A DNA stretch of 64,000 bases from Minisyncoccota bacterium (GTDB taxonomy: Bacteria > Patescibacteriota > Minisyncoccia > Phycocordibacterales > UBA918). Shown piece after piece: positions 598 to 2,054 of the stretch (the stretch's first letter is position 1; each line of letters starts with the position of its first letter). The position numbers and the translations under genes are program-made. Location of the stretch: positions 71,476 to 135,475 of the forward strand of contig JAIPIB010000001.1 of the NCBI GenBank assembly GCA_021734905.1, written 5' to 3'. Under the pieces are notes generated by a model. The model was not told the DNA's origin and did not search any database. It was given only the letters and a program-made list of their open reading frames with translations.

Positions 598-2054
598 AAA
601 CTTAGAGTTTGATCCTAGCTCAGGGTGAACGCTGGCGGCGTGGATGAGGCATGCAAGTCGAATGGGCTTAGACCCATGGCAGACGAGGTAGGAACACGTA
701 GGTACATACCCCAAAGTCAGGGATAACCCGTCGAAAGGCGGAATAACACTTGATGGTCTCGAAAGAGTAAAGATTTATCGCTTTGGGAATGGCCTGCGTT
801 CTATCAGCTTGTTGGTAAGGTAACGGCTTACCAAGGCTATGACGGATAGGGGAGGTGAGAGCCTGACCCCCACCGATGGAACTGCGACACGGTCCATACT
901 CCTACGGGAGGCTGCAGTCGAGAATCTTCCGCAATGGACGAAAGTCTGACGGAGCGACGCCGCGTGGTAGATGAAGTCCTTAGGGACGTAAATACCTTTT
1001 ATGAAGGAAGAAGTTTATTGACATTACTTCATGAATAAGGGGCTCCCAATTCTGTGCCAGCAGGAGCGGTAATACAGAAGCCTCGAGCGTTACCCGGATT
1101 TACTGGGCGTAAAGGATGTGTAGGTGGTGTGATTAGTCTTGCGTTAAATCTTCGGGCTTAACCCGGAACTCGCGTAGGAAACGGTCATACTAGAGGAAGT
1201 GAGAGGTGTGTGGAACTCAAGGTGTAGGGGTGAAATCCGTTGATATCTTGGGGAACACCAAAAGCGAAGGCAGCACACTGGCACTTTCCTGACACTGAAA
1301 CATGAAAGCGTGGGTAGCGAATCGGATTAGATACCCGAGTAGTCCACGCCCTAAACGTTGTCCGCTAGCTATAGGGAGTATCGACCCTCTCTGTGGCGTA
1401 GCTAACGCATTAAGCGGACCGCCTGGGTAGTACGAGCGCAAGCTTAAAACTCAAAGGAATAGACGGGGGCTCGCACAAGCGGTGGATCATGGGGCTTAAT
1501 TCGTCACTAAGCGAGGAACCTTACCAAGGCTAGAAACCATACTGCATACCTAGGGAAACTTAGGTAGCCTTCGAGGGTGTATGGCAGGTGATGCATGGCC
1601 GTCGTCAGTTCGTGGCTTGAGCTGTTCCCTTAAGTGGGGAAACGAACGCAACCCTCGTTGCCTGTTACAAGTGTCAGGCGAGACAGCTCCCTCACGGGAG
1701 AGGAAGGTGAGGATGACGCCAGGTCAGCATGTCCCTAGATGCCTTGGGCTGCACCCGTGATACAATGGGTAGTACAACGAGACGCAATGTGGCGACACGG
1801 AGCAAATCTTAATAAAACTACCCTCAATTCGGATTGAAGTCTGCAACTCGACTTCATGAAGTCGGAATCGCTAGTAATCGTGGATCAGCATCGCCACGGT
1901 GAATACGTTCCCGAGCCTTGTACTCACCGCCCGTCAACTCAAGGGAGCCGGAAGTACCCGAAGTTCGTGCTTGTCACGACCTACGGTAAGTTCGGTGACA
2001 GGGAGTAAGTCGTAACAAGGCACGGCTAGCGGAAGCTGGTCGTGGATTAATTCC
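598..2054 (+). rRNA. rrs: 16S ribosomal RNA (SSU), complete, about 1.46 kb
   Basis: 5' end agagtttgatcctagctcag. Internal landmarks are actcctacgggaggctgcag, gtgccagcaggagcggtaatac (515 region), attagatacccgagtagtcc (806 region) and tgtactcaccgcccgtca (1390 region). 3' end aagtcgtaacaagg...tggattaattcc. The six-frame ORFs 373..714 and 1217..1441 inside it are artefacts. Confidence 0.95.

Follow-up and report, generated by a model that had tools for sequence, protein, structure and literature searches.

Loss of the anti-Shine-Dalgarno core from the 16S rRNA of a Parcubacteria-type bacterium, and the start signals of genes in related lineages

The 16S ribosomal RNA (rRNA) gene in a 64,000-nucleotide (nt) stretch of a Minisyncoccota bacterium genome (GenBank assembly GCA_021734905.1, contig JAIPIB010000001.1, positions 71,476 to 135,475; the window in the following) has truly lost the core of the anti-Shine-Dalgarno (anti-SD) sequence from its 3' tail. 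The core reads AUUCC in place of CCUCC and, therefore, the standard SD:anti-SD helix cannot form in this organism, which implies that translation initiation is SD-independent. Taken as a whole, the data very probably describe a working 16S rRNA of the Parcubacteria/Paceibacteria type that has lost its anti-SD, in a lineage with SD-independent initiation, a leaderless minority of genes and a tail that drifts.

Few RNA sequences are as conserved as the 3' tail of 16S rRNA, and SD:anti-SD pairing is usually taken to be near-universal in bacteria. A large and widespread class without an anti-SD is a natural experiment in SD-free initiation. The loss as such is already published at the level of the clade, and the window adds a further well-documented example: in their passages on the anti-SD, Tsurumaki et al. 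(2022, RNA 28:1041, PMC9297842) report the motif CCTCCT in only 48% of Parcubacteria, an overlap of the lineages without it with the group lacking uL1, the view that SD helices do not form in them, and the frequent absence of bS21 from Parcubacteria. What appears to go beyond the literature we found is the lack of SDs at genes beside variant-tail 16S genes, the -10 box peak and the tail/trailer hairpin; the papers found describe neither mRNA start signals nor trailer structure in these lineages. The value of the window lies in a clean, well-supported example and in testable leads, the leaderless signature and the hairpin. There are practical sides as well: gene finders that weight SDs will mis-call starts in these genomes, and 5' ends may have to be redesigned for their genes to be expressed in standard hosts or for foreign genes to be expressed in them.

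A complete 16S rRNA gene with an altered tail

The gene scores 1368.4 bits with the Rfam model RF00177, whose gathering score is 50. The match is untruncated and spans all 1533 model positions (1-1533), and in full-length sequence and secondary structure the gene is a bacterial small-subunit rRNA. It is short as a result of helix deletions typical of the candidate phyla radiation (CPR). When the model was rerun on the 3' part alone, helix 45 closed at 2021-2044 and the bases that follow, G2045 to U2057, aligned to GAUcACCUCCUUu in every column at maximal posterior probability, without insertion. The conserved tail GAUCACCUCCUUA expected at this place was not found: 6 of 13 positions differ, including two of the five of CCUCC (A2050, U2051, U2052, C2053, C2054), and the GAUCA element reads GAUUA. 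Between 1900 and 2731 of the window there is no CCTCC; the next one, at 2732, lies in an open reading frame (ORF) on the opposite strand, beyond the processing stem described below.

An earlier note, made from the letters of the window alone, had called the 16S gene divergent at the 338, 515F and 1492R sites and in the tail, where it read AUUCC for CCUCC, and had named a displaced CCUCC or a 3' intron as what would overturn this. The three strings it quoted are all present, GGCTGCAGTCGAGAATCTTCC at 909-929, GTGCCAGCAGGAGCGGTAATAC at 1054-1075 and GGATTAATTCCAAT at 2044-2057, and the covariance-model alignment that it proposed bears out the tail and the boundary of helix 45, with neither a displaced CCUCC nor an intron. 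Its remark that the altered anti-SD is rarely discussed is fair, except that the loss in a subgroup of Parcubacteria has been published (PMC9297842).

The oddities at the primer sites are lineage signatures that are kept functional by compensatory changes. Positions 505-507 and 524-526 of Escherichia coli 16S rRNA pair to form the established pseudoknot of the 530 loop. In the window, C525G and C526A in the 515 site are matched by G506C and G505U (window positions 1045 and 1044), giving the predicted pairs U-A, C-G and C-G, and the 515 change is, by this pairing, compensated across the pseudoknot. TCC stands at 505-507 in every upstream 14-mer class listed for loci with the 515 variant (the top 15 classes), and the base before it is mostly C, in a few T or A. 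The four mismatches to 1492R are likewise compensated, since they lie in the 5' strand of helix 45, which covaries: over 64 distinct relatives the helix is 99.8% paired, and both sides have changed in 7 of 10 pairs. Least unusual of the three is the 338 region, in which the change from GGCAGCAG to GGCTGCAG is absorbed by the degenerate W of primer 341F.

That 515F and 1492R would mismatch, as the earlier note predicted, is borne out by the counts: two internal mismatches for 515F and four for 1492R, all at the 5' end of the primer. There is one mismatch each for 27F, EUB338, 926R and 1391R, and none for 341F and 806R. The predicted under-sampling in amplicon surveys would be expected for 515F and 1492R but not for 341F and 806R, which match perfectly; surveys with 515F or 1492R will under-represent such lineages to an extent that depends on the primer pair.

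The gene looks functional because the 515 change and helix 45 are compensated, a processing stem flanks the gene and there is a plausible transcription unit. The flanks form a duplex of -74.7 kcal/mol around the 16S gene. A long flanking stem, as cut by RNase III, is the usual architecture for rRNA precursor processing. In five relatives (L045, L099, L117, L064 and L022) the trailer is 70-81% identical over its first ~150 nt (2058-2210, ending inside the 3' arm of the stem). A promoter-like site upstream (105-132) is a candidate promoter of the 16S transcript, and the perfect hairpin directly after the stem (2220-2265) possibly ends the transcription unit, although it is not a textbook terminator since no T-run follows it. 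The 16S gene is unlinked: there is no 23S or 5S gene in the 64-kb window (none over 62 kb downstream), and the same holds for all 18 related 8-kb loci scanned. In the Rfam scan all of these 18 were recognised as bacterial small-subunit rRNA, 14 over the full model and four ending with the fetched locus. The sole other RNA gene in the 64 kb is a tRNA-Ile(GAT) on the minus strand (3962-4036), ~1.9 kb downstream of the 16S gene.

Two side observations concern this region. L045, L099 and L117, too, have a tRNA gene 1-2 kb past the 16S gene on the opposite strand. The 2220-2265 hairpin is followed by two direct-repeat copies of 50 nt (2267-2316 and 2405-2454), which are 98% identical and both open with the palindrome GAACCGTGCCTGCGCACGGTTC; neither in the rest of the window nor in the fetched loci was this hairpin/direct-repeat element (2220-2454) found again.

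Spread of variant tails among relatives

Scanning for the 515 signature in one genome per GTDB species gave at least 120 loci. Among the matches listed, to which the counts in this section refer, nearly all are metagenome-assembled genomes (MAGs) of Parcubacteria/Paceibacteria, with Kaiser-, Nomura-, Adler-, Zambryski-, Wolfe-, Yanofsky- and Staskawiczbacteria and 'Minisyncoccia' represented, and the nearest relatives of the window are named Paceibacteria, Minisyncoccia or Patescibacteria. Judged by a neighbour-joining tree and by these record names, the gene belongs to the Parcubacteria/Paceibacteria (NCBI: Minisyncoccia). The earlier note's assignment to a CPR/Patescibacteria-type 16S agrees with this, as the signature retrieves almost only such MAGs and the closest relatives share the tail.

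Comparison was possible for 76 of the loci, in which the 16S 3' end and enough of the trailer are covered. CCUCC and UCUCC are both missing from 71 of them; only five (L026, L069, L114, L044 and L095) keep one or the other. The variant tails of the 71 are diverse and include AUUAAUUCCAAU, AAUAAUUCAAU, AACAUAUCCAAU, AUUAACUCAAAU, AUUCAUUCCGAU and AGUAUUUCAAAU. Seven species-level relatives (L022, L045, L061, L064, L099, L103 and L117) have exactly the tail of the window while their genes are 82-89% identical to it over the 3' two-thirds, which argues that the tail is stable within a clade of family-to-order level. The 515 variant GCAGGAGCGG is also present in the five loci with a canonical tail, including Kuenenbacteria (L026) and Peribacteria (L114); apparently, the 515 change came before the loss of the anti-SD and is spread more widely. 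Some relatives have a 16S gene extended by 0.5-1.3 kb, with a distance from 515 to helix 44 of up to 2261 nt.

A possible reason for the drift between clades is offered by Era, which binds GAUCACCUCC and has been lost by most CPR bacteria (Era review, PMC10582724); Paceibacteria are mostly without era (2025 survey, PMC12641178). Selection on the tail may thus have been relaxed through loss of Era.

The scan also recovered this 16S signature from MAGs called Gammaproteobacteria, Chitinophagaceae, Bacillota, Flavobacteriaceae and Methylobacter (L066, L075, L088, L102 and L120) and from many loci called 'Saccharibacteria', which points to wrongly binned contigs or wrongly labelled bins among public MAGs.

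Gene starts and a candidate tail/trailer hairpin

Genes beside variant-tail 16S genes show no SD, neither a canonical one nor one complementary to their own tail. All gene sets were made by the same crude pipeline, a greedy choice of non-overlapping longest ORFs with a minimum of 100 amino acids. Between -18 and -6, SD-like tetramers were found in 3 of 54 genes of the window (0.06, in-gene 0.13) and in 37 of 333 genes of the other variant-tail loci (0.11, in-gene 0.12). In a 50-kb control from E. coli K-12 the same count was 15 of 42 (0.36, in-gene 0.07), with a G peak of 45-48% at -11/-10, and the pipeline can therefore detect SDs where they are present. In the variant-tail loci taken together (383 genes), the share of G runs level between -13 and -1, at 14-20%, with A at 35-38%. 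A GGAGG-like motif 5-12 nt upstream of the start, as expected of SD-dependent genes, is not enriched in the window or in the variant-tail relatives, nor are GGAA and GGA[AG]T at -18 to -6 in the window. Duplex energies, for which upstream values and window-only values were used, gave no preference for the own tail over the reversed tail in the 383 genes (-2.29 versus -2.23 kcal/mol, p=0.16). As an aside, of the GGAGG sites in the window 88 are on the plus strand, on which most genes lie, and 22 on the minus strand; as raw counts, these suggest that SD-like words are not avoided in coding sequence.

What is seen instead is a box of the -10 type at a fixed, short distance from the start. Among 373 genes, TANNNT starts at -12 in 43, against ~8.5 per background position, and the strict box TA[TAC]A[AT]T in 17, against ~1.4 (binomial p=4e-12 over -14 to -8). 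The raw TANNNT peak is partly inflated, 20 of the 43 being an in-frame TAA or TAG favoured by the longest-ORF rule, but the stop-codon-proof TA[TC]NNT still peaks at -13/-12 (19 and 23 against ~5) and has no 3-nt periodicity. The commonest hexamer is TATAAT (21), and ATG starts make up 93% of box-bearing genes versus 65% overall. In the window alone, 7 near boxes stand against 9 far ones (p=0.01); examples on the minus strand are the genes at 26288 and 39991-41265. A -10 box ~7 nt upstream of the start and a bias towards AUG classically mark leaderless genes, and the excess of the box amounts to roughly one gene in eight; that these genes are translated from leaderless mRNAs is the likely meaning. 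In addition, 13 of 42 same-strand gene pairs of the window overlap or lie within 10 nt (gaps of -20 to +9 nt), and such tight packing would be compatible with translational coupling.

Four small ORFs close to the 16S gene (2563-3060 on the minus strand, 3651-3830, 4213-4410 and 4761-5132) are different in that GGAG(G) stands ~7 nt before their ATG. Two of them have near-consensus TTGACA/TATAAT promoters and hairpin terminators. None has a Pfam hit or a homolog among the matches listed, while synteny is conserved for their neighbours, MurD and a pilin-like ORF. The four may have been acquired and be specific to the strain, or may not be genes at all. GGAG(G) in this position is odd in an organism without an anti-SD.

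The tail itself seems to be tied to the trailer. In most relatives the start of the trailer complements the tail (e.g. UUCA-AUU-UGAA, CUCA-AAU-UGAG, UUCC-GAUU-GGAA and UUUC-AAAU-GAAA), and relatives with a canonical tail have the hairpin CUCCUU-UCU-AAGGAG (CCUCCUUUCUAAGGAG in L026 and L069). In an alignment to a small covariance model, consisting of the helix 45 anchor and the hairpin, the hairpin is 94.9% paired and four of four pairs have changed on both sides; sliding the 3' partners lowers pairing over the whole structure from 98.5% to 30-52%. Because such an alignment favours its own structure, a matched null with the same loop freedom was run. Of 73 distinct tails, 44% have a full 4/4 Watson-Crick complement of their own 4-nt arm, compared to 5% with shuffled trailers (at most 14% in 300 shuffles) and 5% with trailers from tails with a different arm. 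The arm classes fall near the diagonal (TTCC to GGAA 0.50, TTCA to TGAA 0.49, CTCA to TGAG 0.80, CTCC to GGAG 0.80) with off-diagonal values near 0, except for the ATCC class, which keeps GGAA, and L031 and L046 have U-G wobble intermediates. Independent changes are few, roughly three to five on a simple neighbour-joining tree. The stems of 3-4 base pairs (bp) are thermodynamically negligible: minimum free energy (MFE) folding of the 26-nt tails gave a mean z of -0.39 and did not predict the 2052-2061 hairpin in the window sequence, and support comes from the comparative pattern and not from thermodynamics. We consider the hairpin a real comparative pattern of uncertain function; plausibly, it would be a precursor structure at the site of 3' maturation, inherited from a hairpin that masked the anti-SD. 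Two procedures were abandoned. A MAFFT alignment of the 3' ends was ungapped and put the 3' arms out of register after unequal loops; it was replaced by the covariance model. A test with a fixed 3-nt arm (40/76 versus 28%) was discarded, its numbers unused, because the stem register differs between clades.

Table 1. Features in and around the 16S rRNA gene, in window coordinates
Feature	Position	Strand	Details
Promoter-like site, TTGACC-16 nt-TATAAT	105..132	+	11/12 consensus matches; consensus scan only
Precursor processing stem, 5' arm	476..500	+	25-nt inverted repeat, 92% complementary to 2192-2216
Complete 16S rRNA gene	597..2057	+	1461 nt; RF00177 covariance-model match
338 region	898..929	+	GGCUGCAG replaces GGCAGCAG; mismatches: EUB338 target 1, 341F 0
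530-loop pseudoknot, 5' strand	1044..1046	+	E. coli positions 505-507 = UCC (E. coli GGC)
515 primer site, GUGCCAGCAGGAGCGGUAAUAC	1054..1075	+	C525G and C526A at 1064-1065
1492R target, AAGUCGUAACAAGGCACGG	2007..2025	+	4 mismatches, in 5' strand of helix 45
Helix 45, CACGGCUAGC-GGAA-GCUGGUCGUG	2021..2044	+	Covariance-model alignment; GGAA loop kept
3' tail, GAUUAAUUCCAAU	2045..2057	+	Covariance-model alignment
Candidate tail/trailer mini-hairpin, UCC-AAUU-GGA	2052..2061	+	3 bp; comparative support only
Precursor processing stem, 3' arm	2192..2216	+	Pairs with 476-500
Perfect 21-bp hairpin	2220..2265	+	Inverted repeat, 100% complementary, 4-nt loop, directly after processing stem

Pfam scans of ~50 ORFs of the window yielded no ribosomal protein, translation or ribosome-biogenesis genes that inform on the mechanism. 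A cluster of ~40 kb (14404-57112) encodes glycosyltransferases, epimerases, methyltransferases and a Wzy-like ligase as well as a sulfotransferase (28834-29682) and a fusion of ATP-sulfurylase and APS (adenosine 5'-phosphosulfate) kinase (53009-54685), a content suggestive of a sulfated glycan on the surface of this CPR bacterium. Adjoining the 16S gene on the minus strand (3187-3651) is a small membrane protein like the pilin of type IV secretion systems, conserved in relatives with the same tail. Further ORFs encode a TrwB/VirD4-like coupling ATPase (10929-12938), an RsmI-like protein of the TP_methylase family (8126-8809), possibly a 16S methyltransferase, and a protein with a PaaX/Cas2-like domain (21240-21812).

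Alternative readings and comparable systems

The gene in the window might be a decaying or additional copy, or an assembly chimera, with the working rRNA having a normal tail. In its favour are the limit of the data to one 64-kb window and the lack of linkage to a 23S gene, but unlinked 16S genes are the rule in the 18 relatives checked. Neither decay nor chimerism sits well with a full-length covariance-model score, with compensated changes in the 530 pseudoknot and helix 45, with a processing stem and a conserved trailer, or with the same tail in seven independently assembled species and variant tails in 71 of 76 loci among the matches listed; we hold it to be highly improbable. Still harder to believe is that the true 3' end lies elsewhere, an intact CCUCC being displaced by an intron or insertion. 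CPR 16S genes often carry insertions, and the extended genes of some relatives are examples; the gene in the window, at 1461 nt, has no insertion in the covariance-model alignment, and the CCTCC at 2732 lies in an opposite-strand ORF beyond the processing stem.

Loss of the anti-SD also has to be weighed against its replacement or partial retention. A tail with AUUCC or UUAAUUCC could be a re-specified anti-SD that pairs with a co-evolved motif such as GGAAU or GGAAUUAA. Exact conservation of the tail in seven species-level relatives among the matches listed, and the (nearly) invariant U and C at the old CCUCC centre across the whole set, would fit this. However, GGAA and GGA[AG]T are not enriched before the genes of the window, the own tail does no better than the reversed tail over the 383 genes, there is no G or other positional peak, and, as the tails of sister clades differ, re-coding of whole genomes would have been required repeatedly. 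We consider it very unlikely. Hardly better placed, although a little less improbable, is a residual canonical SD, in which some genes, for instance the small ORFs at 2563-5132, rely on UUCC pairing with GGAG through a G-U wobble. The four GGAG(G) sites downstream of the 16S gene, two of them with near-consensus promoters, are its best support, but these ORFs have no homolog among the at least 120 loci listed and no Pfam hit, SD motifs elsewhere are at or below the in-gene background, and a 4-bp helix that includes a wobble is very weak.

Several points weigh against SD-free initiation after loss of the anti-SD. The part of the genome seen is 64 kb, and era, bS21, uL1 or a second 16S copy could lie outside it. 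UUCC can pair with GGAG through the wobble, so weak residual pairing may persist, and GGAG(G) does stand at SD spacing in the four small ORFs beside the 16S gene. Gene starts were taken from the longest ORF, which is crude. The relatives with a canonical tail supplied 24 genes from 5 loci (p=0.17), too small a set for a contrast. The -10 box is found in 20% of operon-first versus 14% of internal genes, a difference that is not significant (p=0.24). Finally, the mature 3' end near U2057, the transcription starts and leaderless translation are all predicted from sequence.

With SD-free initiation as the favoured account, the 16S rRNA would be transcribed as a stand-alone unit and cut from a precursor held by the long flanking stem. 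A sizeable minority of genes would lack a leader, the end of their -10 box falling ~7 nt ahead of the start codon, and the remaining ones would follow A-rich, G-poor upstream regions or belong to operons whose genes are tightly packed and often overlap. In the absence of SD pairing, and probably of Era as a reader of GAUCACCUCC, the tail would drift between clades, perhaps constrained only by the small hairpin with the first bases of the trailer. It is tempting to speculate further, although we regard this as doubtful, that the tail now serves as a hairpin arm and no longer as a docking site for mRNA, that compensatory changes maintain an inherited anti-SD-masking hairpin, perhaps for maturation without Era, and that the clade as a whole is SD-free, largely leaderless and coupled. 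If true, this would be a free-standing bacterial lineage that initiates without any SD pairing, on largely leaderless mRNAs and by gene coupling.

The closest comparison is with the anti-SD-lacking Parcubacteria of PMC9297842, which share the lineage, the lack of CCTCCT at the 16S 3' end and the short CPR-type 16S with deleted helices; the passages of that paper on the anti-SD give the detection rate and the overlap with uL1 loss, and do not describe the replacement tails, start signals or trailer. Mammalian mitochondria, whose small-subunit rRNA has no anti-SD (PMC10582724), are a second parallel: a 12S rRNA without anti-SD, leaderless mRNAs and a reduced ribosome with missing proteins. They differ in being organellar and in retaining the Era homologue ERAL1, which binds helix 45. 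The hairpin has its counterpart in relatives with a canonical tail, in which the bases after the mature 3' end also complement the tail and form a short precursor hairpin; in the variant-tail clades the hairpin persists but its sequence changes (UUCA/UGAA, CUCA/UGAG, UUCC/GGAA) and there is no anti-SD to be masked. A further parallel may be the hairpins between anti-SD and trailer that are common in Firmicutes spacers. Bacteroidota resemble the window in having genes without SD motifs, A-rich upstream regions and initiation without SD pairing, but their ribosomes keep CCUCC and hide it structurally, whereas here the sequence itself is gone. Leaderless-rich bacteria such as Actinobacteria and Deinococcus ('group C' of GeneMarkS-2) share the -10 box at a fixed, short distance from the AUG. 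They keep a canonical anti-SD and use SDs for their leadered genes, and neither is seen here.

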